Shown here: positions 1,369 through 32,438 of the stretch, piece by piece
Layout: every line of letters begins with the position of its first letter
Position numbering within the stretch: position 1 is the first letter of the stretch
NCBI GenBank assembly: GCA_045536845.1
Contig: JAZSOG010000025.1
Location: 56,889-120,888, forward strand
Direction of reading: 5' to 3'
DNA: 64,000 nt
Source: Kiritimatiellia bacterium
GTDB lineage: Bacteria; Verrucomicrobiota; Kiritimatiellia; RFP12; UBA1067
Made by a program: the position numbers and the translations under genes
The notes under the pieces: generated by a model
Databases searched by the model: none
What the model saw: the letters and a program-made list of their open reading frames with translations, nothing else
Told to the model about the DNA's origin: nothing

Positions 1369-1466
1369 CAAATCCGACGCGATTTCGTCCGCACTATAAT
1401 CTCATGTCAAATTCCAACAGTAACAATGTCTGATTTTTGCGCGGCAGATTCGCCGCGCTGATTTTT

Positions 1467-1475
1467 TGCTATAAT
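1467..1475 (+). promoter_or_regulatory. Extended -10 promoter (TGCTATAAT)
   Basis: TGnTATAAT, preceded by palindrome GCGCGGCAGATTCGCCGCGC; equivalent site at 56705. Confidence 0.6.
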
Positions 1476-1561
1476 ATAAACGTTCTCGCGGGTCGCGTGG
1501 CCTTGCGGGAAACAGCCGATGCGGGGGAGAAATCCCGATAAGGCGATAAGATTTTTGCGCT

Positions 1562-1787
1562 GACACGCAAACGACGTTCTTCTGGGAACTTGGCGGTTTC
1601 AAATGAGGGAACGGAGTTTGGCGAGGTCACGCAGGCGGTTTATTCCGTCTTGCGTGTCCTTGTCTTCTCTTTCCCTCATGGGCACGCCAAGGCCTCCAGA
1701 AGAGAGAGAATGACAAGGCACGCATTTTTGTTTGCCAAGAATCCTCTCCAAGTCTCTTGCGTTAAAGCGCGCGAATGAGACTTGAAG
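1562..1787 (+). promoter_or_regulatory. Structured attenuator-like leader of MTase copy 1
   Basis: Stems 1578-85/1696-1703, 1589-95/1685-91, 1603-11/1671-79; alternative stem 1651-70/1705-24 followed by a T-run; final hairpin next to the start codon. Confidence 0.55.
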
Positions 1788-3323
1788 ATGGTAGCCGGAA
1801 AGAACTCGAGAAAAACGAAAGAGGCGCAACAAGTTGCGTCCGAGGTGTCGCGTATTGTCCTTGTCGGAACATACAAGGGCGACCAGCTGAAGAAGTGGCA
1901 TGGGTGGTACAACTATCCGATCTTGAACGCCGACAAGATAATAGCGGACGATGCGGCAAAGATAACGGAACTTTGGTTGTTCAAGGGCAAGAAGGAACAG
2001 CGAAACTACAAGGCGTCGTTCGTCGGCGTCAAGACGCGCCAGGAACTGATCGACGGCTACGGCTATCCCGCCAAGGGGAAAGCGCACGGAGACAAATATC
2101 TTCTTTTCAAGACGGAGTACAAGTACCGACACAAAGGAGAAGTCCCCGAAGACGTCGAGCGTGTCATTATCCGCACGGCAGATTTTGCGACCGCGCCCAA
2201 GGTGCGGAAGCAGCTCAAGGCGTATCTCGAGTCGCCGGACCGCCACGACCCAGATCTTGCAAAGCGTCTGCCAGAAATCATTACCAAGTTGCGACCGGAG
2301 CAGTTGCGCGTGTGCGAACTCGCTTATCAAATGGCACTTTGGGAATTGCCAAATTGCGATAGTTTGAAACCTGATGTGCCTTTCCCCGCGCCTGAAAAGG
2401 GCAAGTTCACTTTCATAGATTTGTTTGCAGGCATAGGTGGCATTCGCCTTGGTTATCAGTCACTTGGCGGCAAGTGTGTTTTCTCGTCAGAATGGGACAA
2501 GGAAGCTGCGAAGACCTATTACAGCAATTTTGGAGAAGAGCCATTTGGCGACATTCAGAAGATTGATCCTGCCGACATGCCTGATTTTGATATTTTGCTC
2601 GCAGGGTTTCCATGTCAACCGTTTTCCATTATCGGAGACAAAGAGGGCTTCAAGCATGAGACGCAAGGTACGCTTTTCTTCAACATTGAGAAGATACTGA
2701 TAGAAAAGAGGCCAAAGGCGTTCATGCTTGAAAATGTGCGTAACCTGACTGCACACGATGGCGGGAGGACATTTAGGGTGATATTATCGCATTTGCAGAA
2801 TGCAGGATATGACGTACACTACAAGGTATTGAACGCACTTGACTATGGCGTCCCGCAAAAACGCGAAAGAATAATCATCTGCGGATTCCGCAAGCCTGTC
2901 GCATTCGAATTCCCTCCGCCGATCCCAATCAGCCAGCGTAAGACGGTTGCAGACATCATTGACAGCGAAGCTGAAAACGATAGGTCGTTGCGTGTCCGTC
3001 CGGCTATTCGCGCAAGCCGATTACAGAGGATTAAAGACAAAAACTTCCCAAGGCCTTACATATCGCATGAAAATGTAGCGGGAACGATTACGCCGCACTC
3101 ATATTCGTGTGCCCTCAGGGCTGGAGCGTCGGCAAACTATATTCTCATAAACGATGAACGTCGTCCCTCGCCGCGGGAGATGTTGCGAATTCAGGGCTTC
3201 CCTGATGAGTTTAGGATCGTTGTAAATTATGGTCAAATCAAGCATCAGACTGGCAACAGCGTTGCGGTGCCAGTTATACGCGCCGTAGCAGAGCGTGTTG
3301 TAGAACAACTTCCTAACCTTTAA
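1788..3323 (+). CDS. DNA (cytosine-5) methyltransferase with extra ~190 aa N-terminal region, copy 1
   Basis: Motifs DLFAGIGG, GFPCQ, ENV, PQKRER, GNSV; ATG at 1788 (ORF track starts at TTG 1782). Confidence 0.92.
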   Translation: MVAGKNSRKTKEAQQVASEVSRIVLVGTYKGDQLKKWHGWYNYPILNADKIIADDAAKITELWLFKGKKEQRNYKASFVGVKTRQELIDGYGYPAKGKAHGDKYLLFKTEYKYRHKGEVPEDVERVIIRTADFATAPKVRKQLKAYLESPDRHDPDLAKRLPEIITKLRPEQLRVCELAYQMALWELPNCDSLKPDVPFPAPEKGKFTFIDLFAGIGGIRLGYQSLGGKCVFSSEWDKEAAKTYYSNFGEEPFGDIQKIDPADMPDFDILLAGFPCQPFSIIGDKEGFKHETQGTLFFNIEKILIEKRPKAFMLENVRNLTAHDGGRTFRVILSHLQNAGYDVHYKVLNALDYGVPQKRERIIICGFRKPVAFEFPPPIPISQRKTVADIIDSEAENDRSLRVRPAIRASRLQRIKDKNFPRPYISHENVAGTITPHSYSCALRAGASANYILINDERRPSPREMLRIQGFPDEFRIVVNYGQIKHQTGNSVAVPVIRAVAERVVEQLPNL

Positions 3324-3335
3324 TCCGAGCTTGCC

Positions 3336-4076
3336 ATGAGTGATAATTCTCCAAAGTTGAAATCGGTGGAAAAGTACCAGCCTGAGTACCCATTGGGGCA
3401 GTTCCCAAAGGGCTTTGCTCTTGCATTGGGGCGCGAAATTGTTTATCTGCTCGCCACGCGCGATATTCCAAAGATTGAGGGGGAGGATTGGGAGGAGATA
3501 TTTGCCAGATGTATCGGCGCGAAGTGGACCCCATCAAACGTGGGTCTGGACGATGTGCAATTGAAACAGATGGCATGGAGCGCAAAAACCGTGAAAAACA
3601 ACAACCCGTTCACGGTTCGCAACATCCGCCTGATCAGTGGACGCAATTCGCCGGATTATTCATTTGATATCGAGAATGTCCATGCAGAGGACCCAAATCA
3701 GCTTGGTGGAATGATCCTTGGTATTTGGAATGGACGGATAACCGAAGTTCGCAAGAAGTTTGCAACAACTCGAACGGTCGTTCTCGTCAAAGGCGAAGGC
3801 TTGGAGACGATTTCGGTGTTTGAGGAGGAAGCATTGCGATTCATCCCTGAGGATTACTACTGGGAGTGGAATTCTCATGATAATCTTGAAGGATATGAGC
3901 GGGCGACTGATAAAAAGAAGTTTACGTGGCAACCACATGGTTCACAGTTTACGATTTCCACTACTGCGCCAGACAATCGCCTGAAATTACGCATTAAGAA
4001 GCCGCCAAAATTGAACAAAGCTGATTTCTTGGCAGCAATCAAGTTTGATTCTTCGTGGATTGAGATCGTTGAGTAA
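3336..4076 (+). CDS. Putative type II restriction endonuclease, copy 1
   Basis: 246 aa immediately after the C5-MTase; WEEIF...LDD...SAKT resembles a PD-(D/E)xK variant; paralog at 59350. Confidence 0.7.
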   Translation: MSDNSPKLKSVEKYQPEYPLGQFPKGFALALGREIVYLLATRDIPKIEGEDWEEIFARCIGAKWTPSNVGLDDVQLKQMAWSAKTVKNNNPFTVRNIRLISGRNSPDYSFDIENVHAEDPNQLGGMILGIWNGRITEVRKKFATTRTVVLVKGEGLETISVFEEEALRFIPEDYYWEWNSHDNLEGYERATDKKKFTWQPHGSQFTISTTAPDNRLKLRIKKPPKLNKADFLAAIKFDSSWIEIVE

Positions 4077-4080
4077 TAAT

Positions 4081-4494
4081 ATGATGGTAAATGTCATCGA
4101 AACTGCCGCGCAAGCTGCTGCGATTGTTCGGGCGGAGTTGCCGAAGGTGCAAAAGGAAGAGCGGGTGTTTGTGCTGCCCCTCGACGCGAATGGCAAGATG
4201 CTTGCAAAACCGATTCTCGTGTCTGTTGGGCACGAAGACGGGACGACGGCGATTGACGCAGGTACAATTTTCCGAGAAGCATTGATGGCTGGTGCGGAAG
4301 AAATCATTGTCGCCCATAATCACCCATCAGGCGATCCGACACCAAGCAGGGACGATTACAAAGCAACCGTTCGGCTCAACGAAGGTGCGGAACTCGTGGG
4401 GTTGAAGTTGATAGATCACATTATTGTCGGCGCTGACGATTCCGCAAACGGCTTGGGCTTTGTGTCGATGACGGATTTCGCCAGAATATGGTAA
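4081..4494 (+). CDS. RadC-like JAB/MPN domain protein, copy 1
   Basis: E...HNHPSGDPTPSRDD...DHII JAB motif. Confidence 0.88.
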   Translation: MMVNVIETAAQAAAIVRAELPKVQKEERVFVLPLDANGKMLAKPILVSVGHEDGTTAIDAGTIFREALMAGAEEIIVAHNHPSGDPTPSRDDYKATVRLNEGAELVGLKLIDHIIVGADDSANGLGFVSMTDFARIW

Positions 4495-4503: not shown

Positions 4504-5046
4504 ATGAAGTTCGGCGTGGCGATTTTGATGGTGGCGTTTCTCGCTCTCTCAGCTTTTGCGGGGGCGAGGGTTGTCGTATCGTCGCTGCCGGAAACGGTGA
4601 GGCCGATGGCTGAGGTTGAGACGAATGTCGTGTTCTCGACAGGGGCGGCGGCGGACAACAAATGGACGCTGACAATTGAGCGCGACGCGGCGGCGAGCAA
4701 CAGCGTCGAGGTCGTGTTTGGCCGTGATGCGAACGAGGACGGCGTGCTTGGGGTCGAAGAAGGGGAGCTTTGCGTCGGCTGGGACTGCGGGGAGTGGTTC
4801 TGGCGCGACAGGCGCTCAAACACGGCGTGCCGCGTCGAGGGAACGGCCCAGCGTCTTGACATGACGCTCTACCTAAACCGAGACCGAGAGGCGAAGTCGC
4901 TGGCGTCCTCGGTGTTTCCGTCGGTCGTGTCGCCAACATGCTTCAACACCGACTGGAACCTTGCCCGAGTCGTCTCACGCGGCGCTGAGACCATTCGTGT
5001 AGAGAGCAAGGTTACGATTGACGCGTTAACGTTGAGGATTCGGTGA
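4504..5046 (+). CDS. Secreted hypothetical protein (partner of downstream toxin-like gene)
   Basis: Signal peptide; DANEDGVLGVEE Ca-loop-like motif; TGGTAAAAT ends 6 nt before ATG; 1 nt gap to next gene. Confidence 0.65.
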   Translation: MKFGVAILMVAFLALSAFAGARVVVSSLPETVRPMAEVETNVVFSTGAAADNKWTLTIERDAAASNSVEVVFGRDANEDGVLGVEEGELCVGWDCGEWFWRDRRSNTACRVEGTAQRLDMTLYLNRDREAKSLASSVFPSVVSPTCFNTDWNLARVVSRGAETIRVESKVTIDALTLRIR

Positions 5047-5047
5047 G

Positions 5048-7615
5048 ATGGCGACGCTCTTCCAGACTGTGCTGATGCGTCTTGCCTTGTGCGGGCTTGC
5101 GGCTTCGCTTGTCTTGCTTGCGCTCCAGTCGCGCATAGCCCGCGACACCTTCGCGCGACTGCTTTCCGCCTGGCGTTCGCTTGCCGCGCTTGGCCGCTTT
5201 ACCGTCTGTTCCTTTCTTTTGATCGGCGTTCTCATTGGCGGCGACAAGACGAACAACGTGCCGCCGAATATGAATTCGCCGCAGATGATGCAGGGGGTAA
5301 TTTCCCAGACAGGATTGCCGTTCCCCGTTCCCCATTCCCCGTTCCCCATTGCCAATCCTGTCCAAAGCAGTTTCGCCGAGCAGAAGTCCTCTAACTGGAA
5401 CATTCGCGGCGCGTGGAAGGATTCGTTTTGGCTGGACTTCGAGGATGGCTGGGTGTTTCCATGTGGCACGAACCATCTTTCCGGCGTCGAGGTCGTTTCA
5501 TACGGACAGATTTGGGCCACGCCATTTGACACAAACGCCGTCGCGTCTGCTGGCTTGCCGTTCGAGATCGTGCGTGGGCTCACGACATTCGGCTACGAGT
5601 TCACTCCGTCCAATTCATATCGTTTCGTCTGGAATGACGCGGCGATCAACCGCGACACGAACAACCTTGTCTCTGCCGCGCTTGAGCTTTTCCGCAACGG
5701 CGATGTCTCTGTCACGACAAACGGCGTCGCGGCATATCTGCCGCGCGTTCTTCCGTTTCCGCACAATGGCTTCGGGCAGGACGATGAATGGGTGATGGCG
5801 AACTTTACAAACGCGACCGAGATCTTTGCCGTCGGCTATCCGCAGTGGGTCAACGCGCAGGTTGGCGAAGGGCTGACGAATGGGCTATACAAGTTTACGG
5901 CGACGATGCCTGACGATCCCCTAGAGACGGTTCAGCTCGTTGTCGGCGACTTGTCGGTCGCGGTCACCAATGCTGGCGAATACGTTTTTCTTTTGGAGAA
6001 AGGGATTGATTATGAATATGGTATAATTCCTTTTATGACGAATGTTTCATATTCCGCAGTCGACGACGTGCCGCAGACGCGGGGCGTCGTGCGTGGGGGG
6101 CAGCGCTCTTCGCCCGGCGACGCGACGCGCACATGGACCGTCGATGGCGGATATGGGAACGAGCCGCAGACGGAATATGCGCTTGGCTGCGTGTGGTGGC
6201 TCCCGTTCTTCTTCGGATCGCCGGATGTGTCGCATATCGGGCCGGATGACGAAACGCAAACATTCACCGCCAACTTTGCCGACTGTCGTCAGCTGCCGGT
6301 CGCTTCATATCTTTGGACGGCATCTGATGGCCTGACTGTCCATTCTCCGAACGCGCAGACGACGCAGATAACAGTCGACTCGATGCCGTGCTGGGCACAG
6401 GCGAACATTTCCGTGACTGCGACCTTCGGTGGCCATGAGCTTTATTCATATCTCGACGGCTTAACCTACGGCACGAACTCCACGCCGCAGGTGCATCTGG
6501 CGCTGAACGTGCCGGACGCGGTTCTGCTCAACAGCAATGTGGTTAGCGTTGCGAAAGTTGCGGCTGCGGGGTGGTCGTTCTGGTCTGACGCGCCCACAAG
6601 CGGCGTTGTCCGCGTATTCTGCGTGTCAGGTGCGGACAAGGTTCTTGTGCCGGGGCTTGTGGGGGAGTGGGCGGTTGCTGACTCGTATTCCGTTGCAGCA
6701 ACGCTGGAGGGAGTGGGAACAAGTGCTGCATTTGGCGATGTTGTGTTCAGGATGGAGTTCTGCGGCGGCGACGCCACGAACGCAGTGGAGAAGGCAACGA
6801 CCGTCGTGCGTGTCGGTGACGTGCTTCTGCCCTCTGCTCCTGCAGACGGGCTTGTTGTGCTTACGAACACGCCGGTAGCGATGCTTCTCGACTGTGAACC
6901 AGCTGGGTCTGGGTCTTTTCTCTCGACAGCTTGGCACACGCGGCGACTGAAGTCGGACGGGAGCTATGATGAATGGCAGCTTGCCGAATACAACCATCAC
7001 GGAGCGTCAATCGTGCTTACGCCTTTGCTGGGCGGCATCTATCAGATTCGCGCGCTCGCGTCCGTCGCGGCAGGCGGAGCAGACGAGAGGTTCTATGTGT
7101 GGGATGCGGACGAAGACAGAACGATTGGACCTGCCAAGAAAGGCGAACCGAAGTCTATTGGAGTAGTCTCGCACGTATGGCAGCAGACATTGCGTAATTG
7201 TGCGCGAGATTTTCTCGGCAGTACTGCATATCTCAGCACGGAGGCGTTGCCGGCTCAATATGGATTCCCTGCGTATCCGGCGGGCGACATTGTATTCAAG
7301 TGTAATATATTTGTTGCGCATCGTATTGTGCAGTCGGGTTTGCCGTGTCCAAAAACGCGAGGGTGGTTTAATTCTTATCCGCCTCTTGCAAATGATTGGG
7401 CGGATACGTCATATGAAATCGGTGATTGGATTGCGCTGCCGTCAGAAGGATATCCTGAGCCGGGATACGTGGCCGCAGATCCAGATCCAGACACCAGTGG
7501 GCACATGGGCATACTTGATTTTGACGGTTTCGGCATTAGCGCAGGAATGGCAAACGTCAATCGTCATTTTGAAACTGGTTCGTCAAATATTGTTAGAAGG
7601 AAACTGGAGGAATAA
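5048..7615 (+). CDS. Large exported protein with C-terminal papain-like (CHAP/NlpC-P60-type) domain; candidate polymorphic toxin
   Basis: N-terminal hydrophobic segments, long beta-rich stalk, C-terminal KCNIFV...PPLANDWA...PEPG...SGHMGI Cys/His pair; GC appears lower in the tip. Confidence 0.6.
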   Translation: MATLFQTVLMRLALCGLAASLVLLALQSRIARDTFARLLSAWRSLAALGRFTVCSFLLIGVLIGGDKTNNVPPNMNSPQMMQGVISQTGLPFPVPHSPFPIANPVQSSFAEQKSSNWNIRGAWKDSFWLDFEDGWVFPCGTNHLSGVEVVSYGQIWATPFDTNAVASAGLPFEIVRGLTTFGYEFTPSNSYRFVWNDAAINRDTNNLVSAALELFRNGDVSVTTNGVAAYLPRVLPFPHNGFGQDDEWVMANFTNATEIFAVGYPQWVNAQVGEGLTNGLYKFTATMPDDPLETVQLVVGDLSVAVTNAGEYVFLLEKGIDYEYGIIPFMTNVSYSAVDDVPQTRGVVRGGQRSSPGDATRTWTVDGGYGNEPQTEYALGCVWWLPFFFGSPDVSHIGPDDETQTFTANFADCRQLPVASYLWTASDGLTVHSPNAQTTQITVDSMPCWAQANISVTATFGGHELYSYLDGLTYGTNSTPQVHLALNVPDAVLLNSNVVSVAKVAAAGWSFWSDAPTSGVVRVFCVSGADKVLVPGLVGEWAVADSYSVAATLEGVGTSAAFGDVVFRMEFCGGDATNAVEKATTVVRVGDVLLPSAPADGLVVLTNTPVAMLLDCEPAGSGSFLSTAWHTRRLKSDGSYDEWQLAEYNHHGASIVLTPLLGGIYQIRALASVAAGGADERFYVWDADEDRTIGPAKKGEPKSIGVVSHVWQQTLRNCARDFLGSTAYLSTEALPAQYGFPAYPAGDIVFKCNIFVAHRIVQSGLPCPKTRGWFNSYPPLANDWADTSYEIGDWIALPSEGYPEPGYVAADPDPDTSGHMGILDFDGFGISAGMANVNRHFETGSSNIVRRKLEE

Positions 7616-14380: not shown

Positions 14381-14607
14381 CTAAGGCCTCGGTGGATATT
14401 CCATCTTGGCGGCTCGCGAAGGTGGCGAGACGATAAAAGCCAATAAAATCGCTACTTCCGTGGGGTCTGTCCCCAGGATTTTTTATCGCCGCGCAACCGC
14501 GTGGCGTTTTGAATCGGCGGGCATGTTGCTGCAAATCTCAACTGTCACTTGCAATTTGTAGTTTACTTGTGGTATAATTCCTCCTGTCGCAAGGTGAAAG
14601 GAGAATT

Positions 14608-15774
14608 ATGATAGCAAGAGAGATTGCGCCTGTTGTCATGAAGAGGGCGAGCGAGTTTCCCGTGCTGACCCTTATTGGGCCGCGTCAATCGGGCAAGACC
14701 ACCCTTGTCCGCGATTGCTTTCCCGACTACGACTATGTCAATCTGGAAGATCCCGAGACGCGCGATCTCGCCAATGATGACTACAGGCGATTCCTGGCGC
14801 TACATCCTGCGCCTGTGATAATCGACGAGATTCAAAGGGTGCCGAAGCTTGCATCGGCCATACAGACGCTTGTGGACGCCAATCGCGGGAAGTGCGGCCA
14901 GTTCATTCTGACGGGTTCGCATCAGCCTCGACTCAAGGAGACGGTTACGCAGTCGCTCGCCGGGAGAAGTGCTTTCCTGAAGCTGCTGCCGCTGACATTT
15001 TCGGAACTTAAGTCGGCCAAGCGCTCGCCTGACCTTTCCCAGGATGCGCTTATGCTTCGAGGGACGATGCCCGAACTTGTATCGTCTAAAGTGGATGCGA
15101 ACATCTACTACAAGAACTATCTGCAGACATACCTTGAGCGCGATGTGCGTCTGATAGCCAACATACGTAACACGTCGGCGTTTAGACGGTTCCTCGTCCT
15201 GCTTGCAGGGCGCGCCGGCCAGCTGCTGAATCTCGACAGCCTTTCCGGGGACGTGGGCGTAAGCCATACGACGCTCGCCGAGTGGCTTGATGTCCTGGAG
15301 GCGTCCTTCATTGTGTTCAGGCTGGAGCCATACCACGCGAACATCAGAAAGCGGCTCGTCAAGACGCCCAAGCTGTATTTCACTGAGACGGCCCTTGCGG
15401 CATGCCTGCTTGGCATCAAGACCAGGGAGCAGATGGCGCACGACCCGCTTAGAGGGCATCTATTCGAGAACATGGTCGTCAGCGACCTTGTGAAGCGGTG
15501 CCTTAACGCCGACTCAGAGGGCGATCTGTTCTTCTTTAGGACGTCAGACGGGACAGAGGTCGATGTGCTCAGGAGGACTCAAGACGGATTTCAGCCTATT
15601 GAGATAAAGGCGTCGATGACGTGGTCGGACAGCTTGGCGGAAGGGATCGGAAGCTATTCCAAGCTGATGCCCAACCCAATTGCCCCGACTGTGATTTACG
15701 GGGGGCGGTCATATCCTAGTCGAGATGGGGCAGTTAGCTCGGTCAATTACCTTGATTTTCGCTATTCGCATTGA
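14608..15774 (+). CDS. AAA+ ATPase with DUF4143-type C-terminus
   Basis: GPRQSGKT, IIDEIQ, LTGS, KTPKLY, FENMV, EVD...IEIK. Confidence 0.9.
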   Translation: MIAREIAPVVMKRASEFPVLTLIGPRQSGKTTLVRDCFPDYDYVNLEDPETRDLANDDYRRFLALHPAPVIIDEIQRVPKLASAIQTLVDANRGKCGQFILTGSHQPRLKETVTQSLAGRSAFLKLLPLTFSELKSAKRSPDLSQDALMLRGTMPELVSSKVDANIYYKNYLQTYLERDVRLIANIRNTSAFRRFLVLLAGRAGQLLNLDSLSGDVGVSHTTLAEWLDVLEASFIVFRLEPYHANIRKRLVKTPKLYFTETALAACLLGIKTREQMAHDPLRGHLFENMVVSDLVKRCLNADSEGDLFFFRTSDGTEVDVLRRTQDGFQPIEIKASMTWSDSLAEGIGSYSKLMPNPIAPTVIYGGRSYPSRDGAVSSVNYLDFRYSH

Positions 15775-15818
15775 TCCTGCTACCCCGCGCACCTGCGCGC
15801 CGAAAATACATTCCCATT

Positions 15819-15850
15819 TCTACACGTTCTACACGCTCTACACGGCTAAA
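15819..15850. repeat. Triple 9-mer repeat (TCTACACG-n)
   Basis: ttctacacg ttctacacg ctctacacg gctaaa. Confidence 0.8.
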
Positions 15851-16060
15851 TCTTAAACACTGATTGCTTTCGCTACGGGGAGTTTTGGAGCTTGGGAGGA
15901 TGAAGGAGGTGTGCTCTCGGCCTTAATGTGTTTTAGCCGCAACCTCCTTCGCCGAGGCTATGGTGGTCAAGAAGAACGCAAAGGGCGCAAAGAAATTGAA
16001 AACCAGCGACTACTGACGCCCATAATCTTTCCCGAAAAGCCGTTGCTTTTGGTATAATAT

Positions 16061-16137
16061 TCACTGTCAGAACGGGAACGCATCTGACCTCATAGCTCCC
16101 GACGAGAACCGCCGCGGAGAGGCCGGCAGGATAGTGA
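16061..16137 (+). ncRNA. Candidate structured RNA, copy A
   Basis: Starts just after TGGTATAAT; close copy at 16753; GTCAG/CTGAC stem becomes GTCAG/CTGGC (wobble-compatible) in copy B. Confidence 0.45.
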
Positions 16138-16331
16138 TTCTCATGTCAAAGCAAGACTTTAGAGATTTCGTATTCTCTACAAATACGGACGGAAGCGGCA
16201 AGGCCGCAAATAAGGGAAGTGAAATACCGCAAAAGTCGGAATCAAAATACCACAAATATCAGAAACGCACTCTTGACTTCTGGGGGATAAAAGTAGTATA
16301 ATATGCGCAATTCACAAGAGAAATTGCGACT

Positions 16332-16682
16332 TTCGGGTTCATTTTCGAAACGCTGGGCATACGGGACTTGCGGGCTTATACATCGGCGATGGGCGGAAGC
16401 CTATCGTATTACCGCGACAGATACGGACTTGAGTCCGACTGTGTTTTGCATCTCCCAGATGGACGCTTTGCCTTGATTGAATTCAAGTTGGGGAACAGTC
16501 AGATCGAAGAGGGCGCAAGCCATCTTCTCCAGATTCGCAATCTTGTGCGCGAGGCGAACGCGAAAAACGACGGTGTTCGCATAGATGAGCCGACTTTGAT
16601 GATGGTGGTCACGGGCGGCGAACTTGCCTACACACGCAAAGACGGAGTTCATGTCGTGCCGATCGGATGTCTTAAGCCGTGA
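16332..16682 (+). pseudogene. 3' fragment of a DUF4143 AAA+ ATPase
   Basis: FGFIFETLGIRDLRAY...YYRD...ESDCV...IEFK; no ATPase domain; sits right behind a TTGACT-N18-TATAAT promoter, suggesting an internal deletion. Confidence 0.75.
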
Positions 16683-16752
16683 CGTTGCCTTTGCCGCACT
16701 TGTGCGATTGGCGAAAAGGCGCCCTCAGTAAGTGCTGTTTTTGATATAATAC

Positions 16753-17006
16753 TCACTGTCAGAACGGGAACGTTACTGGCCTCATAGCTCCTCGACGAGA
16801 CCCGCCGCGGAGAGGCCGGCAGGATCGGCCATCGGTTGCAAGTCTAGCATCGGGAAATTACGACACTCTTGGATGGCTGTTTTATGATTTGCAAGGTGTT
16901 ACCAATTTGTGGTGTCGCCTTGTCGCATATTCAGCCAGGCCGTCGTAAGCCTCCCGAGCATGTGTTCAAGGCGCGCCACTCTAACAAAATAGAGAGGCGC
17001 GCTTTT
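16753..17006 (+). ncRNA. Candidate structured RNA/leader, copy B, ending in an intrinsic terminator
   Basis: TGATATAAT at 16742; 73 nt repeat unit; long hairpin ~16851-16956; terminator GCGCGCC..GGCGCGC-TTTT at 16971-17006. Confidence 0.5.
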
Positions 17007-17037
17007 CTGTTTAAGACTACTGATGCGAGGACTAAGA

Positions 17038-19419
17038 ATGAGCGAGGCAGAGGTTTACGCATGCAAGAGATCTGTTGTTGATTTCGTAGATGCTAAAAGT
17101 TCTGACATCCTTGGTGAGGTCGTAGCTGGGTCAGGTAATTTTTGCATATTGCAAACCCAACGGGAAGCCTGGCAGCGGGAAATAGATTTGCTCCAAGGAA
17201 TTTTGAAAGATGAGAGATTTAAAAAGGCAACTAATCGAATCTACTTTGAATTTAACTTAATGCGTTTTGCCAAACGTGTTGATGTGGTTCTGATTCTTGA
17301 TGGCGTCTTGATCTGTTTGGAATTCAAGACTGATCAGATTGGCGGGGCGGGGAAGTCATATTTGGCGCAGGACAAGGCTCAGGCATTGGCGTATGCCGAT
17401 GAGTTCTCCCAATTTCACAGCACTAGTAGCAAATGTCCCATTGTGCCCATGTTGGTCGTGCCAGGTGCGCCTGACATGATGTGTGAGGTTGTTTTGAACA
17501 ACGCAAACATTTATGGACTTCTATGCGTTAATGAAAATACTTTGTCGGCAGCACTCAAAGCCGTGCTTGATAAAAAAGATAAAGATAATTGGGGTGATCT
17601 CATAAGTGATTCAGACAAGTGGGAAACAGGAGAGTACAATACGGTTCCGACGATAGTCGAGGCGGCAGGGCGTCTTTTTGAGAATCAGAATGTTGAAGCA
17701 ATCACTCGCTCTGGGACGGACGTTACGAAAACAATCCGTACGATAGAAAACATAATACGTGTTGCGGAGGAGAAAAAGAAGTGCGTGCTTTGCTTGGTGA
17801 CAGGAGAGCCAGGGGCAGGCAAGACGCTTATTGGGCTTCAGATTGCATCGTCGCACATGAAGAAGAAGTTGTTGCCAAATGAAGAATCGGGTGGGGACGA
17901 TCTCATTCGTAAAGTGATGCTCTCTGGGAATTATCCACTGGTGAAGGTGCTTAAGGAGTCGCTTGTCAGAAATATTTACGGGCGGCTTAAGGCATGCAAG
18001 GATCTGATGAATAACGAAGGTGGTTCTTTGACCGATGAGCAGAAGCGTTTTATCTTGTCGTGCGGATTCCAAGTTCAACCGACTGGGAAAAAGAAAAAGA
18101 TCAAGGGTTCGAAAATCTCTGTTGAAATGCAAGAGCTTTGGACGATTTCGAAGTTCACGGACAAGGGGAAGACAGAAGTTAAGAAAGCACAGGATAGTCT
18201 TGAATGTCGGAAGTTCTCAAGAACATTCGTTGAGGCGACTGTTTCTTCGATGATCCAAATGGTTTCGCATTTTCGACGTGGATGGGAGTTGTCCGAGAAC
18301 CCTCCAGTGGAAAATGTCTTTGTTTTTGACGAGGCTCAGCGCGCTTGGAGCTTTAACCAAGTGAAAAGGAAAGATAAGAATACCCACCCTGACCAGATTC
18401 GCAGGAAGTGGTCTGAACCGCGTACATTGTTAGAATATTTGAATAGACATAGTGCGACGGACGGGTGGTGTGTGGCTATTGCGCTTGTAGGCCACGGACA
18501 GGACATACATGAAGGTGAGGCTGGAATAGGAGAGTGGTACAAGGCACTGGAGGATAGCGAGAATCTCAAAGATTGGGTTGTGTGTTGTTCTGATGGTCAG
18601 GGATTGATAGATAAAGGTGTGACACAGGAGATCAATCCTGATTACGGTGAGGATATTGATTACAGCATGCTTCACCTCAAGGATATGCAGCGTAGTTTTA
18701 AGGCAAAGGAAGTCGGCCCATTTGTCAATGCATTGCTTAAGGGGAGGGAGGGGCTTGAAGAAGCGAAGCGTTTAATTGAAGAAATCAACAAGACATTCCC
18801 GTTGTACATTACGCAGGACGTAGACCTTGCTAAGCAATGGATTGTAGAAAAGTCCGATAATGGCAGACGTAGATGTGGCTCTGTAATGTCGTCTCGAGCT
18901 GTTCGCTTGCGGGCATATGGGTTTCAGACTCTTGCCCAGGGTTTTGATGAGGCTACATGGTTCCTTGAGCCGTCGGACAATATCAACTCATCAAATACAC
19001 TTGAGATTTCAGCTACTGAATTCAAAATTCAAGGACTCGAGTTGGATTACGTCTTAGTGGGATGGGATGGTGATCTATTCTATAATTCTGAGAAGGGCGT
19101 TTTTGAAGCTAGGCATTTCTCGTTAAAAGCTAATGCCTGGAAAGAAGTGAAGTGTCTAAGTAAGGACGACGAAGTCGGCAAGGCAGATGGAGAATCAGAT
19201 GATGCTGACGTTGATCCGAAAGACAAGGACAGACATCTAAGAAATGCATATCGAGTATTACTTACACGCGCACGGCAGGGAATGGTCATCTTTGTACCAA
19301 AGGGCAAACCAGATGATAGCGATCAAACAAATCTATCGCACGTGAATTATGATGATACATATAGTTTTCTGCATGATATGGTTGGCATAAAGGAATTTGA
19401 GGGTAAAAAGGATAGATGA
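17038..19419 (+). CDS. DUF2075/Schlafen-group-3-like SF1 helicase with N-terminal PD-(D/E)xK nuclease
   Basis: RVDVV...LEFK; GEPGAGKT; DEAQRAW; QGLELDY; NAYRVLLTRARQG; Lys-rich insertion. Confidence 0.85.
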   Translation: MSEAEVYACKRSVVDFVDAKSSDILGEVVAGSGNFCILQTQREAWQREIDLLQGILKDERFKKATNRIYFEFNLMRFAKRVDVVLILDGVLICLEFKTDQIGGAGKSYLAQDKAQALAYADEFSQFHSTSSKCPIVPMLVVPGAPDMMCEVVLNNANIYGLLCVNENTLSAALKAVLDKKDKDNWGDLISDSDKWETGEYNTVPTIVEAAGRLFENQNVEAITRSGTDVTKTIRTIENIIRVAEEKKKCVLCLVTGEPGAGKTLIGLQIASSHMKKKLLPNEESGGDDLIRKVMLSGNYPLVKVLKESLVRNIYGRLKACKDLMNNEGGSLTDEQKRFILSCGFQVQPTGKKKKIKGSKISVEMQELWTISKFTDKGKTEVKKAQDSLECRKFSRTFVEATVSSMIQMVSHFRRGWELSENPPVENVFVFDEAQRAWSFNQVKRKDKNTHPDQIRRKWSEPRTLLEYLNRHSATDGWCVAIALVGHGQDIHEGEAGIGEWYKALEDSENLKDWVVCCSDGQGLIDKGVTQEINPDYGEDIDYSMLHLKDMQRSFKAKEVGPFVNALLKGREGLEEAKRLIEEINKTFPLYITQDVDLAKQWIVEKSDNGRRRCGSVMSSRAVRLRAYGFQTLAQGFDEATWFLEPSDNINSSNTLEISATEFKIQGLELDYVLVGWDGDLFYNSEKGVFEARHFSLKANAWKEVKCLSKDDEVGKADGESDDADVDPKDKDRHLRNAYRVLLTRARQGMVIFVPKGKPDDSDQTNLSHVNYDDTYSFLHDMVGIKEFEGKKDR

Positions 19420-19507
19420 AGATGAGTTACAGAAAAGAAATGGGCGGGATTTGTAGTAGGGCGGCACGCAGGTGTTTTCGTGTTCTTAATTCTTTGGAGG
19501 GTGAATC

Positions 19508-21410
19508 ATGACGGATTGGAGTTTTCCCACTGCAACAGATGACTATGAAGGCAAGGGGCTCAATGATTCTGGCATCGAGACATTTAATGATGATTGTCTG
19601 AAGGGGCTTGCTCGCGAGATATGCCAGAACTCATTGGATGCAAGACGCAAGCAAGGATGTTCCTGAAGAACAGCCTGTAATAGTCGAGTTTTGCAGATTC
19701 AACATATCGCCGGAGAGATTCCCAGGTAAAGATACGTTTTATCAGGCACTGAAGAAGTCGTTGGAGTTTTGGGAGAACAGAGAAGATGAAAAGACTGAGA
19801 ATTTTTTCAAGGAGGCATTGGAGCAGATTGGGTATTTGAGTATGCCTTGGCTTCGTATTAGCGACTTCTATACCACTGGTTTGAACGGCGTTTCAAAAGG
19901 ACATACGCATAGTGCTACTACGCCCTGGAGTAGTCTTGTCATGAGTTCTGGCGTTTCGAATAAGGGAGGGGGAAGCGGAGGTTCGTTTGGAATTGGTAAG
20001 TTTGCGACTTTTTCCTGCTCGAAATTCAGGACAAGCTTTTATTCCACGCTTACTAATGAGGGCGAGAAGGGCTTTCAAGGCGTGGCTAGGTTGGTGTCGT
20101 TTGAAAGTGAGTGTGGTGGCGTTACCTTGGGGAACGGGTATTATCGTGAAGATGGGAGGCCATTGAATGCCGGCCCCAGGATTGACGATTCTTTTGAAAG
20201 GGGCGAAAGAAGCGGGACGGACATTTTCGTGCCTGCGTTTTGTGGGGGAGAAACATGGTTTGACGACGTTACTTCTTCTGTGTTAGACGGTTTTCTGTTC
20301 GCCATATTTAAAAATAAGCTTGAAGTTCGATTGATGGATGATCGAGGAGGGACTCTCATTCTTAATAGAGAGTGGTTGGACAATCAATACCGGCTGGGCA
20401 AATTAACGAACCGGCCGACCGTGAGATACAATTACGAAGTCTTGAAAAATAATGATCCTGACAGGGTGTTCAAGAAAGACTTTGGAGAGGATGGTTATTT
20501 GGAATTGCGGCTTATGTTGGCGCCAGATTTGGACAGGCGTGTTTCTATGATCCGTGAGACAGGCATGAAGATATACGCCAAGGGCAATTTCCCTGCCAGT
20601 ATCTCATTTTCTGGCGTTCTTGTTGTGCACGGAGAGGAGCTAAATAAGCGCATTAAAAAATTCGAGAACCCGCAGCACACCAAGTGGGAGCCGAAGAGAA
20701 ATCCGTCGGATGCATCGCTTTTGGAAGATATTAATCGTTTCTGCCGCCAATCGCTTAGCATGCTTGTCGAAAAGAGCTCGTCTGAGGAATTGGACGCTGG
20801 GCTTGGAGATGTTTTGCCGGCAATTGGTTTGTCGGAAAAACAAGAAGAGCGAGAAACGCTAAGCGCGAAGATCAATAGCCTCACTGAGACCAAACGAAAG
20901 CGGAGACGAGCCGTTACTAAATCTGATGCCGACGAAGAAGGTAACTCTGTTGGGGAAGAGGATTTGCTTGACGACGCGAAAGGTTCTGGCGGTGGCCCTG
21001 GCGAAGACGAAAGTTCTAGGTCGGGAGATAAGGAGCATGATGGCGATGGACAGGGAGAAGGCAACGGCCCGTCTGAGGACGGCGACCGAAAGCAACCCAA
21101 GCTGCGTAACGTGAAGCCTGGCAAGTATAGATTTGCATGCACAAACGAGAGCCAGGGCGAATACAGGATGTTCATTGTGCCGGATGTGACGGAGCAGAAT
21201 GGTGTTCTTGCGTTAAATGCCGTGGCGGAATTGAACACCTATGAGGCGGCTATTGTTTCGGCAAGGACTAACGACGGGGATGAGCTGAAGATTGATGGGA
21301 ACAAGATCATTGGGATAAAGTTTAGCAAAGGAGAACAGTTGCAGATTTTGCTGAAGCTGGACTATTCAGACTATGTTTCACTGGAGGTGATGTGGTATGG
21401 AGCTGTTTGA
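19508..21410 (+). pseudogene. GHKL/MORC-like ATPase, frameshifted by a CAAG duplication at 19648-19655
   Basis: RBS plus ATG 19508 encodes LAREICQNSLDA (motif I) then stops at 19666; LRISDFYTTGL, GSFGIGK and GTDIF lie in the +1 frame ORF 19608..21410. Confidence 0.8.
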
Positions 21411-22311
21411 CAAACGTTATCCGTATCCAGTGCTTACTGCGCGCACTGACGACTATATTGGGTGCTCTTTTGACGTGGAGGGTGAGTCAATTAGGCACGA
21501 CTCCGTGCTTGAGTTGTCGCTCAATGCAAAGCTCGATTGCAAAAGCCTCCAATCGCTTATCGAACGTGGGGATGCGGCGATTATTCTGCATGTCGAGTGT
21601 TCCAGAAGCGCATACAGAAAGTCTCACAAGCTTCCTTTGGGGGCGCACGTCATAACGATTTCCTCCGCCGAGGTTTCGGGTAGGGTTTCGCTTTGTCCGT
21701 TTATCGTGGCTCGGCGAGATGTTGAGGAATATAAGAGCGAGCAGTTTAATCCGATTTACCAGGACCTTGCATTCAAAATACGCAGTGGAGCCGTGCTGGC
21801 AGAGGGAATAGAGAAGAGCGTATACGTTGACACATCAACGCATGACATGGACTATAAGCCGGACATTTTCTCGGTTGTGCCGGACAAGTCGATGGACGAG
21901 GATGAAAACGAGAAAAAGTGCATTAAGGTCGATCCGTGCAACAATAAAATCGTGATCCATATGCCGACAAGGGCGTTTAACCAATATGGTGCATTGCTCA
22001 AATCTGGAATATCAAGCGCGATTGTCCTGTGCGTAGTTATTCTCCCGGCGATGATGGAAGCGCTGTCCCGTATGCGCGATGCGTATAAAAATGAAGAGTT
22101 GGAAGACTTCGAGGATTTTGTCTGGTTCAATTCGGTCAAAGAACGGATGAAGCAACTCTATCCAGAGGCGCGTCGGGACATGTGCCGGTTTGTGCGTGAG
22201 AAAATGGAGATAGCGTCTGTCGCGCAATCTTTGATAAAGTCACCGGTTGTTGATGCGCTGGATATGCTTGCCAACTCGGGTTCGAGTGCGGGAGGTGCCG
22301 ATGAAAATTAA
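21397..22311 (+). CDS. Hypothetical protein (YPYPVL N-terminus), operonic with the GHKL ATPase
   Basis: 304 aa, overlaps both neighbours. Confidence 0.75.
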   Translation: MELFDKRYPYPVLTARTDDYIGCSFDVEGESIRHDSVLELSLNAKLDCKSLQSLIERGDAAIILHVECSRSAYRKSHKLPLGAHVITISSAEVSGRVSLCPFIVARRDVEEYKSEQFNPIYQDLAFKIRSGAVLAEGIEKSVYVDTSTHDMDYKPDIFSVVPDKSMDEDENEKKCIKVDPCNNKIVIHMPTRAFNQYGALLKSGISSAIVLCVVILPAMMEALSRMRDAYKNEELEDFEDFVWFNSVKERMKQLYPEARRDMCRFVREKMEIASVAQSLIKSPVVDALDMLANSGSSAGGADEN

Positions 22312-23044
22312 ATTCCTTTCAGAATTGGCGTTGGACACAGTAGCTGTCAACTTGAAGAAGTATATGCCGCTTTTTGGCGACGATACGAACGAAAGGTTGC
22401 TGTCGGAACTCCATAAGGAGCTGTCGGAACCACCGTTAAAGGAGTCAAACTTCTCGTTGCCAGATAATCTAAACCTGGACGGTACTCTTCGTGGTGGTCA
22501 GGAAGTGGAAAACGTCCGAAAGTTCCATGGAGCGTTGAAGATGCTACCTCATTCCATTGCCTGCGACTGTCGTATTTGGGCAGGGCTCACGATCGGGCAC
22601 TTTTGGCAGTTTACAAAAAGCCGCTGGGATTTTGCTAAGGGTGTCACTACGTCCAAGGTGAGAGACCACTTTCTGTTCATGGGACAGTCTAAGAAAGCAT
22701 ATACACGCAATGCGCTTTCCCGCCTTTGGTGGATAGGTGATCTGACGTATGACGAAGGCAGAGATGATCCCTATGAAATTACTTCTTTCACAATGAAGGA
22801 CACGGATTACGTCGTTAATTTGCTAGAGCGTAACTTCTCAAGTAATAGGCTTATCTTTAGAGAGTTTGTGGAGGCTGTGGAGTGCGGACGAAGGGAAAAT
22901 CTTGTCATCGAAAGACCGGAAATCCGTGAGTTGTGTAAGTACCTCAATCTGCTCGGAGGTGTTTATGTCTTGGACGCGTTGCCTCCCGGTATGATCAGGG
23001 ACAAGATATACGCACGGGCAAAGAAAATCAACGAGAAAAAGTAA
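22301..23044 (+). CDS. DUF6339-like protein
   Basis: RBS GGAGGT then ATG 22301; RNALSRLWW motif (family call from memory). Confidence 0.6.
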   Translation: MKIKFLSELALDTVAVNLKKYMPLFGDDTNERLLSELHKELSEPPLKESNFSLPDNLNLDGTLRGGQEVENVRKFHGALKMLPHSIACDCRIWAGLTIGHFWQFTKSRWDFAKGVTTSKVRDHFLFMGQSKKAYTRNALSRLWWIGDLTYDEGRDDPYEITSFTMKDTDYVVNLLERNFSSNRLIFREFVEAVECGRRENLVIERPEIRELCKYLNLLGGVYVLDALPPGMIRDKIYARAKKINEKK

Positions 23045-23048
23045 GAAT

Positions 23049-24332
23049 ATGCACTTTAAGCTGGGAGAGTTGTTTTGCGGGCCGGGGGGAATGGCCGTAG
23101 CCTCGACGAGAGTTGCGCCTATCAGGTCGGCCACGCGCGAAGAGTTTAGCTTGAGCCACTCATGGGGGGTAGATTTCTCTAAGGCTGCAATCGAAACGTT
23201 CAAAGCTAATCTTGGAGAAGGTAATGGCATAGAGATGGATGCCAAAGAATTCGTTGCAACTGAGTTGACCCCGGATAAGAAGATCAACGCTCTAGCGTTC
23301 GGATTCCCCTGTAATAGCTTCAGTCAGGTCGGTAAGCGCAAAGGAATCGGCGATGAAGAATTCGGAGAATTGTACAAAACTGGGATTTCCGTTATTGAGG
23401 CATATTCGCCAGATTGGTTTGTCGCCGAGAATGTAAGTGGTATCAGCAAATCGACTGCTGTGGGTCATGATGATGCGAGATGGGAGTTTGTGAAGATACT
23501 TCAAGACCTTGCAGATGCGGGGAAAGGATATAATGTTGTCGCACATCTGTACAAGTTTGAAGAGTATGGTGTACCGCAAGCAAGGCATCGTTACGTTATT
23601 GTCGGCATAAGACATGACATTGCCGACAAAAAGAAGATTGAATTTCGACCTCCCGCACCGCTGTATGGTCCTGGGCGCTTACATCGTTTTGTTACATGCA
23701 AGGATGTCCTTGATAAAGTCTCTAATGAGACAGAATGGGGAGGAAAAAAAACAAGACAATCGGAAACGGTTGTGGCACGTCTGAAATTCACGCCTCCTGG
23801 CGAAAATGCTTGGAAGCTTGATGAATTAGTTGATCCAAGTAAATACTCGGATGAAGAACTAGATGAGTATCTCAAGAGCATTCCTTGGTACGAGACAGAT
23901 ATTGCGCCAAAATTCCCAATTCGGAATTTGCACGATAGGATGGAAACCATAAGAGTACGTATTGAGGAAGTTCGTCTCCATTGCAAAAAGGCAAGAATGA
24001 GTCACATATACCGCCGCCTTGATCCTAATCGCCCAGCGTACACATTGACAGGTAGTGGCGGCGGCGGCACACACATATACCACTATTCCGAACATCGTGC
24101 GCTTACGAACGAAGAGCGAGCTGCATTGCAAACGTTTCCTCCTGAATTTGTTTTTAAGGGTGGCCCTGAGCAGATTCGCAGACAGATTGGTATGGCGGTA
24201 CCGACTAAGGGTGCGGAGCAAATCTTTGATGCGATTCTAAAGACATTTGCAAAGATTCCATACGACTGCGTGGAGCCAGACCCTGCATTGGTGTTTTATC
24301 CTTGTAATAAAAGAGTGCGTATAAGGGGATGA
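23049..24332 (+). CDS. DNA (cytosine-5) methyltransferase
   Basis: ELFCGPGG, GFPCN, ENV, PQARHR, QIGMAVP; clearly different from the duplicated MTases. Confidence 0.92.
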   Translation: MHFKLGELFCGPGGMAVASTRVAPIRSATREEFSLSHSWGVDFSKAAIETFKANLGEGNGIEMDAKEFVATELTPDKKINALAFGFPCNSFSQVGKRKGIGDEEFGELYKTGISVIEAYSPDWFVAENVSGISKSTAVGHDDARWEFVKILQDLADAGKGYNVVAHLYKFEEYGVPQARHRYVIVGIRHDIADKKKIEFRPPAPLYGPGRLHRFVTCKDVLDKVSNETEWGGKKTRQSETVVARLKFTPPGENAWKLDELVDPSKYSDEELDEYLKSIPWYETDIAPKFPIRNLHDRMETIRVRIEEVRLHCKKARMSHIYRRLDPNRPAYTLTGSGGGGTHIYHYSEHRALTNEERAALQTFPPEFVFKGGPEQIRRQIGMAVPTKGAEQIFDAILKTFAKIPYDCVEPDPALVFYPCNKRVRIRG

Positions 24333-24445
24333 CACTTAATCAAAAGAGGCAGGCGGATCTCTTTGTAGAAGCTTTACTGTACATGACTCATATGCGAGCG
24401 ATAGGTTTGCCGCGGCATTTGGTACAATCTGCGTAGGAGAAACGT

Positions 24446-24722
24446 ATGGGACTTGTGAAGACTAGAAGACTTGCGTAACCGCCCCTTGCGGGGGTTCGCG
24501 ACCCATAGGGAGATGCGCCTGCGACGAAGTCGTCAGGTTGGCCGAGGCCGAAGGCCGAGCCGCGAAGCGGCCGCAAGGGCCCGCGCGAACACGCCGAGCG
24601 AACGCGAGTGCCGAGCGATGCAGAAGCAGCTGCGGGCAAAGGTGGGCATGAAGCCGCCGATGAAGGGCGATTCGTGCAACGCCCGCCCGCGGCAGTTTTG
24701 TGTCAATAATGTAGTAAAATAA
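24446..24722 (+). pseudogene. Small basic ORF (MGLVKTRRLA...) interrupted by the hairpin element
   Basis: Paralog of intact 31318..31467; removing 24475..24613 restores MGLVKTRRLAAMQKQLRAK. Confidence 0.65.
24475..24613 (+). mobile_element. Long (139 bp) multi-hairpin element
   Basis: GTAACC...GTGCCG ends; inserted at TGC^AG with no target duplication. Confidence 0.8.
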
Positions 24723-24787
24723 TATACTTTTGACAGTCTGTACTTTTGCCATTGTCAAATTTGCCTATTTTTAGTATACTTTTGACA
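24723..24787 (+). promoter_or_regulatory. AbiE promoter/operator
   Basis: TTGTCA-N17-TATACT ending 6 nt before ATG; repeats TATACTTTTGACA at 24723 and 24775, TGTACTTTTGCCA at 24739. Confidence 0.65.
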
Positions 24788-26084: not shown

Positions 26085-26136
26085 TTATTTGATGTAGATG
26101 ATTAATGTGTTCGCGCGGCGAGAGAGGTGAATGATT

Positions 26137-26277: not shown

Positions 26278-26393
26278 TCCGCGGCAGTTGTGTCGCGACG
26301 GTGTGAAATGTGATAAAATATCTACACAAGCACAAGGAGATGTTGCAAGGTGTAACCTGACACGTGGTGTGTAATTGGAGGTAGCCGAATAAC

Positions 26394-31277: not shown

Positions 31278-31317
31278 TACAGCTTGATTGATACAGTAGC
31301 AATCATATGCGGATGTC

Positions 31318-32371: not shown

Positions 32372-32438
32372 AGGTGCTATGATGCTTGCCTCTTGGCAAT
32401 CGAGAAATATCCAAATGAATGAGAAAGGAGAAAGGTCG

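Follow-up and report, generated by a model that had tools for sequence, protein, structure and literature searches.

A putative two-state leader RNA family upstream of restriction-modification operons and other accessory genes in Kiritimatiellia

Introduction

The window analysed here is a 64,000-nucleotide (nt) stretch from a Kiritimatiellia bacterium (assembly GCA_045536845.1, contig JAZSOG010000025.1, positions 56,889 to 120,888 of the forward strand), in which two similar gene cassettes, A and B, are each preceded by a long leader, here called leader 1 and leader 2. An initial annotation, made from the sequence alone, had taken the cassettes for two copies of a restriction-modification (R-M) operon and proposed that their leaders, different in sequence but alike in terminator/anti-terminator topology, form a conserved cis-regulatory RNA switch for R-M genes. 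The means of R-M control treated in published work include C-proteins, promoter methylation and antisense RNAs (PMC2175313, PMC2275141, PMC4824078), and the locus raises the question of whether RNA structure can be added to them: are both folds of the leaders conserved, do the two leaders have a common origin, and is the element confined to R-M operons? The evidence presented below suggests that both leaders are probably class-wide two-state 5′-leader RNAs that act in cis as transcription attenuators, and that the element is a general leader of accessory genes (defence, surface and envelope) in the class, with heavy R-M use in the lineage of the window.

Relatedness of the two leaders

All the stems that had been listed for the two leaders were found in the sequence by inverted-repeat search and folding (Table 1). 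The minimum free energy (MFE) structure of positions 1555-1800 is a single long interrupted rod with an inner hairpin (−114.4 kcal/mol, z −7.23), and that of leader 2 reaches −112.7 kcal/mol (z −6.90). When the 3′ halves were folded alone, positions 1645-1736 formed the terminator helix, which ends at TTTTTGTTT (−39.3 kcal/mol, z −4.98), and positions 57646-57729 took the corresponding form (−41.5 kcal/mol, z −4.75). In each case, none of 200 dinucleotide-shuffled sequences folded as well. Pairwise alignment agreed with the annotation that the leaders have little sequence in common past AACGACG, despite the 80% and 87% identity of the first two proteins of the cassettes (62% for the third).

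The claim of a shared topology also held up, but not the implication that the leaders are independent designs that converged on it. A covariance model, R1, built from 10 sequences of a third subtype only (subtype 2b, described below), matched leader 2 at 57526-57726 (50 bits, E 4.6e-9) and leader 1 at 1554-1728 (46.9 bits, E 2.4e-8), in both cases over model positions 1-169, and it additionally matched most of the loci of the other two subtypes. Since a model made without either leader recognizes both at full length, they are diverged members of one family, and leaders 1 and 2 are, on this comparison, related copies of one uncatalogued family of predicted leader RNAs. A search of the whole window against Rfam 15, riboswitch and T-box families included, gave no match at gathering thresholds, and at E values up to 10 both leaders matched chance hairpin (miRNA-model) entries only.

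Relatives of leader 1 (subtype 1) comprise 2 more copies in its own genome, with about 80% identity, one in front of an N6 methyltransferase/HsdS/RadC operon and the other in front of an operon with a BglII-like endonuclease, as well as 28 loci obtained by scanning metagenome contigs for a pattern of two invariant segments; together with the window copy and 3 genomic relatives, these loci amount to 27 distinct leaders. When 401 genomes of the class were searched at the DNA level with leader 2, 18 had matches, and these relatives split into a long subtype, 2a, to which leader 2 belongs, and a compact subtype, 2b, of about 170 nt. In the genome of the window R1 found 9 sites; counting the three subtype-1 copies, at least 12 are present in its 3.04 Mb. 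Among 151 sampled Kiritimatiellia genomes, R1 found sites in 39 (24 of 89 genera). Outside the class, only 3 marginal matches (E 6e-5 to 9e-5) appeared in a sample of the phylum; as both scans were samples with strict filters, these counts are lower bounds and no proof of absence.

All three subtypes follow a common order. The 5′ part consists of a hairpin (P0), a linker with AACGACG, the hypervariable stem P1a, a short A-rich stretch, the 7-bp stem P1b and a U-rich stretch; the hypervariable stem P1c and the GC-rich hairpin P2 come next, and after them stand the 3′ strands in opposite order, a segment able to pair with the 3′ strand of P2, and a U-run. P1a and P1c vary among otherwise near-identical leaders while complementarity is kept, as in loci W1, L042 and L064, which have the same methyltransferase downstream. 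Conversely, identical stem variants stand in front of different genes (L052, L062 and L064), which points to exchange between paralogous leaders. The possibility that the variable segments V1 and V2 of the leaders are methyltransferase recognition sites was rejected, as near-identical methyltransferase loci (again W1, L042 and L064) differ in them. In two metagenome contigs we observed tandem same-strand pairs of one subtype-1 and one subtype-2b element a few hundred bases apart (L060, 1138-1407 and 1714-1882; L062, 1-136 and 1740-1913).

Evidence for two alternative folds

Double compensatory changes maintain the rod in every subtype: they occur in 14 of 68 pairs among 26 subtype-1 sequences, in 23 of 47 among 13 subtype-2a sequences and in 16 of 55 among 10 subtype-2b sequences. 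In the class-wide alignment A7, 92.8% of the cells are paired in the rod, double changes occur in 53 of 55 pairs, and covariation scores 0.673 against 0.216 for shuffles (0 of 500 reach it; partner-slid controls stay at or below 0.10), although A7 was fitted to the structure of R1 itself and contains 3 antisense palindromic rows, so that it leans toward that structure. P0, which is helix 1 of A7, has compensatory changes in all 6 of its pairs class-wide.

The terminator is conserved as well. Its 22 pairs are 98.4% paired in the 26 subtype-1 sequences and 2 of them show double changes, although two segments of this helix were imposed by the search pattern of the collection. The subtype-2a sequences, gathered without any pattern, keep a helix of 16 pairs that is 99.5% paired in 13 sequences, with double changes in 4 pairs and none of 500 shuffles reaching its score. 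Class-wide, 41 of 46 members form, from the 3′ half by itself, a long hairpin that runs up to a U-run (mean −42.9 kcal/mol, z −4.9). The resulting two-hairpin state exposes P1b: its 3′ strand lies in the apical loop in 44 of the 46 members and its 5′ strand in a hairpin loop in 35, and in leader 2 both strands are in hairpin loops. In the rod, the 5′ half pairs with the 3′ half through P1a, P1b, P1c and P2; in the terminator, the 3′ half pairs with the adjoining downstream sequence, and the 3′ strand of P2 becomes the 5′ strand of the terminator. Both folds use the same nucleotides and are therefore mutually exclusive.

The substitutions also have a direction. One-sided changes in the stems are of the kind that G-U pairing tolerates on the + strand (for example AU 17/GU 9, CG 14/UG 12 and AU 18/GU 8 in subtype 1), and of the two strands it is the + strand that gives the better fold in 26 of 26 subtype-1 and 10 of 10 subtype-2b sequences; in subtype 2a it does so in only 5 of 13. 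These data point to sense-strand RNA as the functional molecule in subtypes 1 and 2b, and are equivocal for 2a. They bear directly on the alternative that the element works as DNA, be it as a miniature inverted-repeat transposable element (MITE) or similar inverted repeat, as a promoter segment that can invert, or as a Frpo-type promoter that a transferred mobile element uses in single-stranded form. The element is indeed built of long inverted repeats, promoter and leader together are about 80% identical before unrelated genes, the adjoining upstream sequence (1080-1400) is a true multi-copy repeat with 78 genomic matches, and pairs of methyltransferase and RadC-like genes are seen on mobile elements. 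Frpo-type promoters, which are found in conjugative leading regions and in which the template strand must fold, likewise resemble the element as long imperfect hairpins upstream of methyltransferase-type and RadC-type genes. However, the preference for the + strand and the G-U-type changes argue against both a template-strand DNA promoter and an inverted repeat that works only as DNA, selection has kept the terminator alternative at the level of RNA, and the promoter found upstream is an ordinary duplex one. Of the two specific candidates, the single-strand promoter was rejected on the strand asymmetry, and the invertible segment on the absence of inverted variants among the 26 subtype-1 copies, whose inner loops all have the same orientation. 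We consider a DNA-level role extremely unlikely.

If the element is an RNA, it could still be a constitutive structural 5′ untranslated region (UTR), that is, an mRNA-stabilizing rod or an RNase III site that does not switch, behind which the terminator sets a fixed, low read-through. On average, the best fold with the terminator is less stable than the rod by 8.3 kcal/mol in the 26 subtype-1 and 15.7 kcal/mol in the 13 subtype-2a sequences, and the terminator is present in the MFE structure of just 2 and 1 of them, respectively, which leaves the rod as the equilibrium state in 24 of 26 and 12 of 13. Moreover, long interrupted duplexes are typical substrates of RNase III, no sensor or ligand pocket is evident, and a low, fixed level of toxic R-M genes is plausible. 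Nevertheless, a plain rod needs neither the terminator pairing, which is kept by compensatory and G-U changes, nor the conserved display of both P1b strands in loops, and we regard this explanation as unlikely.

Several observations, in addition to the leaning of A7, the imposed helix segments and the equivocal strand result of subtype 2a, weigh against the two-state attenuator that we favour. The pairings of the linker with GAACG and of the A-rich with the U-rich stretch are modestly supported (82.1% paired; covariation 0.256 against 0.179), and the hairpin of the 5′ half is weak (mean −5.7 kcal/mol, z −0.64). A fold tried for the 5′ half of subtype 2a (CUGCUG:CAGCAG, ACGACG:CGUCGU and GGAAA:UUUCC) was no better than shuffles and was discarded. 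A 7-bp hairpin just before the U-run, helix 9, covaries in subtype 2b and class-wide and can form in the rod too; it is absent from subtype 1. As helix 9 is compatible with the rod, the rod may not fully block termination in subtype 2b and class-wide members. The simple sigma-70 scan recognized no promoter for leader 2, and missed the extended −10 promoter of leader 1 as well. Contigs from RNA libraries (four runs) cover parts of the methyltransferase open reading frame (ORF) at 99% identity or more and leave leader 1 uncovered. Finally, no sensor is evident, and no aptamer-like junction, leader peptide, tRNA-binding feature or known protein site was recognized. The proposal of a conserved cis-regulatory terminator/anti-terminator RNA thus stands as far as the compensatory changes in both folds, the sense strand and the co-orientation with genes are concerned, whereas the equation of the rod with the anti-terminator is not a simple one, given helix 9.

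Promoters and co-orientation with the downstream gene

A conserved TGnTATAAT extended −10 promoter lies upstream of the element at a fixed distance in subtypes 1 and 2b. That of leader 1, TGCTATAAT, recurs by eye with equal spacing in nearly all subtype-1 relatives that reach that far, and would place the start of transcription at about 1482. The GC hairpin with its T-run at 1439-1458 looks like a terminator and would insulate leader 1 from upstream transcription; the order of hairpin, T-run and promoter is repeated among subtype-1 relatives. A simple promoter/terminator scan found this hairpin and one unrelated site on the minus strand, and missed both the extended −10 promoter and the large-loop terminators. 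Between promoter and rod, the hairpin at 1515-1544 is paired by RNAalifold (columns 50-79 of alignment A3) and varies by G-U changes only.

In 69 of 73 loci with sufficient DNA, the longest ORF within 700 nt downstream has the orientation of the element; in the other 4, ORFs of similar length overlap on the two strands. Independent placement would give about half, and this counts against a reading of the elements as stand-alone small RNA genes, with their own promoter and terminator, that merely lie upstream of assorted genes. Such genes would explain the conserved promoter and strong terminator, the presence of at least 12 copies per genome before diverse genes, the tandem elements in L060 and L062, the downstream ORFs that in some cases begin 250-400 nt away, and the small hairpin with U-run (helix 9) that many members can form even in the rod. 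Most ORFs, however, begin within about 0-130 nt. By eye, no separate promoter was seen between U-run and ATG in the leader-bearing loci, including that of the methyltransferase behind leader 1, whereas orthologous C5-methyltransferase/endonuclease operons in 4 other genomes (L004, L005, L007 and L009), which are leaderless and short in their 5′ UTRs, have a TGnTAnAAT promoter near the ATG. Furthermore, a hairpin that ends within 3 nt of the chosen ATG or overlaps it was found by script in 13 of 13 subtype-2a sequences, whatever the downstream gene, although in 2 of them (L070 and L075) the chosen ATG falls within the hairpin. Taken with the co-orientation, these features make separate small RNA genes distinctly unlikely. 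By eye, neither gene has an obvious Shine-Dalgarno sequence, as the annotation had noted.

A 248-nt contig from a polyA RNA-seq run corresponds to a paralogous leader, in which 142 other letters separate the matches to 1526-1579 and 1704-1740, and extends 15 nt beyond 1740. The contig gives neither ends nor strand, and may be DNA carry-over.

Genes preceded by the element

The initial annotation had assigned the switch to R-M operons, in the place of C-proteins or promoter methylation. In the lineage of the window much favours such a dedication. The gene next to the subtype-1 element in metagenome loci is a DNA methyltransferase in 20 of 23 scanned (C5 in 9, N6_N4 in 6, N6_Mtase in 2 and EcoRI-type in 3), and 2 more are R-M-related (22 of 23), the last being a GntR gene 483 nt away; 5 further loci without a usable downstream ORF are outside the 23. 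A methyltransferase also follows in 11 of 20 scanned subtype-2 loci and 8 of the 12 copies in this genome, and none of the genes in cassettes A and B belongs to a helix-turn-helix family, as a C-protein gene would. Nevertheless, the subtype-2 loci also precede genes of 4 other families (FGE-sulfatase, BspA-LRR, LamG and acyltransferase), and 5 genes without a family. Class-wide, only 2 of the 23 sampled loci with downstream DNA are R-M; the rest, mainly genes for surface, secreted or envelope proteins, encode LamG, TSP3, F5/8-C, Sel1, RCC1, OMP, trypsin-like protease, GtrA, MBOAT and YccF proteins, a helix-turn-helix protein, a zinc-finger protein, or proteins of no family. In addition, the four orthologous R-M operons mentioned above do without the leader. 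The mixture of downstream genes in the class therefore indicates a general accessory-gene leader and not an R-M-specific one; dedication to R-M is contradicted as a general statement and as such very unlikely, and a lineage-specific use could still hold.

A possible mechanism

In the attenuator that we propose, the rod would let RNA polymerase enter the gene and the two-hairpin state would stop it. While the RNA is being made, local hairpins would arise first and promote termination; the complementary P1b loops could then touch and so initiate conversion to the rod and read-through, and the balance might be set by anything that holds the 5′ half, hastens refolding or changes the pace of the polymerase. 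Because the rod is more stable at equilibrium, termination requires that the local hairpins win kinetically or that a factor holds the 5′ half. A protein, an RNA acting in trans, the speed of transcription or a ligand are all candidate triggers. The alternative pairings account for most of the conserved loop nucleotides, and therefore little is left that resembles a small-molecule pocket. A leader peptide was rejected, since candidate ATGs are lost, replaced or frame-shifted among relatives and conservation, judged by eye, is at the nucleotide level, third positions included. A bolder and rather doubtful idea is that the element is the cis part of a class-wide regulon, in which one signal or factor (an RNA in trans, an RNA-binding protein, a second messenger or transcription speed) would govern read-through at a dozen leaders or more in each genome and thus co-regulate R-M, other defence and surface- or envelope-variation genes, with switching through the P1b loop-loop contact and with variation of P1a and P1c keeping each copy self-folding. 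As a conjecture, that variation may prevent pairing in trans between paralogues.

Classical attenuators and riboswitch platforms have the same plan of a 5′ UTR between promoter and ORF, an intrinsic terminator whose 5′ strand is locked in a competing helix, and conservation of both folds. They differ from the element in that its anti-terminator, a rod of about 125-150 nt, takes up its entire length, that at least 12 copies per genome stand before unrelated genes, and that neither aptamer-like junction nor leader peptide was recognized. In the attenuation of plasmid rep mRNAs by antisense RNA (pT181, pIP501 and pAMbeta1 type), the leader has two folds and a 5′ hairpin loop decides on the terminator, with nucleation by loop-loop contact. 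Two folds, a 5′ hairpin loop and a loop-loop contact are proposed here too, but the complementary loop would be in the same RNA (the 3′ strand of P1b) and the genes are chromosomal defence and surface genes rather than plasmid replication genes. No promoter for a counter-transcript was found on the opposite strand within the leaders by a simple sigma-70 scan, which also misses the extended −10 promoter of the sense strand. With the known forms of R-M control the element shares, in this genome, its place ahead of R-M operons, for which the time and amount of expression are important, and differs from them in being RNA-structural instead of a DNA-binding controller, in cassettes that hold no C-protein gene, and in not being restricted to R-M.

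The literature searched contained no structured attenuator leader for R-M systems and no paper combining Kiritimatiell* with riboswitch, and the family is new to Rfam and to this literature. Well supported as a family, with two conserved, mutually exclusive folds and many copies per genome, it offers an orphan RNA switch for testing and a natural example of a bistable rod/two-hairpin design with an internal kissing-loop pair. Its gene set of defence, surface-protein and envelope-modification genes resembles what other gut bacteria vary by DNA inversion, and the element can be used to mark accessory-gene regulons in Kiritimatiellia of rumen and gut that have not been cultured.

The cassettes and their surroundings

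Table 1. Positions in the window of the two leaders, the cassettes and a possible third copy
Feature	Position	Strand	Details
GC hairpin, then T-run	1439-1458	+	pattern scan; just 5′ of the leader-1 promoter
Leader 1, extended −10 promoter TGCTATAAT	1467-1475	+	invariant across a 4-sequence alignment
Leader 1, overall	about 1483-1787	+	5′ of cassette A
Leader 1, 5′ proximal hairpins	1483-1553	+	first variable, second (1515-1544) conserved; prefix folds
Leader 1, P0 hairpin and linker	1554-1579	+	P0 at 1554-1571 (A3 columns 90-107); linker contains AACGACG
Leader 1, rod	1578-1703	+	P1a, P1b, P1c and inner hairpin P2 (1620-1664); MFE fold and covariance-model match; inverted repeats 1578-1585/1696-1703, 1603-1611/1671-1679
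Leader 1, alternative fold	1651-1733	+	terminator helix 1651-1673/1702-1724; U-run 1725-1733
Leader 1, start-codon hairpin	1749-1787	+	hairpin 1749-1784; adjoins methyltransferase ATG at 1788
Cassette A (predicted R-M)	1788-4494	+	C5 methyltransferase 1788-3323; type II endonuclease-fold protein 3336-4076; RadC-like JAB protein 4045-4494
Possible third diverged copy	16742-17022	+	TGATATAAT promoter 16742-16750; rod-like core 16850-16957; GC hairpin and T-run about 16970-17013
Leader 2, overall	about 57526-57765	+	5′ of cassette B
Leader 2, P0-like hairpin and ACGACG linker	57526-57547	+	covariance-model match begins at 57526; alignment A4
Leader 2, rod	57548-57700	+	P1a 57548-57557/57691-57700; P1b 57562-57568/57680-57686; repeat 57548-57569/57679-57700
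Leader 2, rod, further stems	57596-57674	+	inserted hairpin 57596-57610; P1c 57611-57619/57666-57674 and P2 57631-57642/57646-57657, both also found as repeats
Leader 2, alternative fold	57649-57728	+	terminator helix 57649-57664/57701-57719; U-run 57720-57728; repeat 57649-57658/57710-57719
Leader 2, hairpin abutting ATG at 57766	57740-57765	+	repeat 57740-57751/57754-57765
Cassette B (predicted R-M)	57766-60529	+	C5 methyltransferase 57766-59343; endonuclease-fold protein 59350-60096; RadC-like JAB protein 60101-60529

The annotation of the cassettes as R-M copies was supported by their first two genes. Both first proteins are C5 methyltransferases (PF00145 at 2.4e-88 and 4.5e-89), with an N-terminal extension of about 200 amino acids (aa) (1788-2400 and 57766-58420) that is well conserved between the copies and matches no family. 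For the second protein (246 aa in A, 248 aa in B), neither family search, PDB sequence search, PHROGs nor PADLOC returned anything for the 246-aa form. A model of that form (predicted local distance difference test score 92) gave, in a structure search, type II restriction endonucleases in all of the top 11 rows, the best being 3ndh_B (Z 8.5, root-mean-square deviation 4.6 over 176 residues), and Foldseek gave weak matches to endonucleases only (E 0.012 or worse). Predicted type II R-M cassettes are thus a fair description. A search of the genome contigs with the 246-aa protein found 10 loci.

The third gene, RadC-like with a JAB domain, recurs in that place in three methyltransferase-led operons of the genome, those of the two cassettes and that at L037 4255-5010, a consistent association. 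Next to cassette A on its 3′ side is a pair of genes for proteins of 180 and 855 aa (4504-7615). This pair is repeated behind the N6-methyltransferase operon (L037 5032-8545) with 84% identity and 59% over 520 aa, and has a distant relative behind an EcoRI-type methyltransferase (L039 314-4136). Neither protein had a Pfam, PADLOC, PHROGs or PDB sequence match, and the pair may be a shared defence module downstream of variable R-M genes.

The repeat just 5′ of leader 1 at 1080-1400 is a nested inverted repeat of about 290 nt, with arms at 1098-1125/1341-1368 and further inner arms. Fragments of this repeat are present at about 56386-56613 too, on the 5′ side of cassette B, and it looks like a MITE-like or REP-like (repetitive extragenic palindromic) family that borders these islands. 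Between this second fragment and leader 2, positions 56430-57454 hold two ORFs, one of 205 aa and one with a PIN domain, whose stop and start codons overlap and which look like a toxin-antitoxin pair; because no promoter of its own was recognized for leader 2, it might be co-transcribed with these two ORFs.

Finally, a third leader copy is possible, though not established, at 16742-17022, where the sequence resembles promoter, rod core and terminator and R1 gives a weak match (16.6 bits, E 0.15, model positions 28-138). This candidate precedes a Schlafen-like helicase gene, which is followed by two genes of unknown function and a C5 methyltransferase gene (23049-24332). It is located within a dense defence-type island (14600-34200) that contains, besides the Schlafen-like helicase and the C5 methyltransferase, two AAA_14/DUF4143 ATPases, an AbiEi/AbiEii pair, a 1627-aa fusion of DEAD and UvrD helicases, and a NERD nuclease with a Zn-ribbon.

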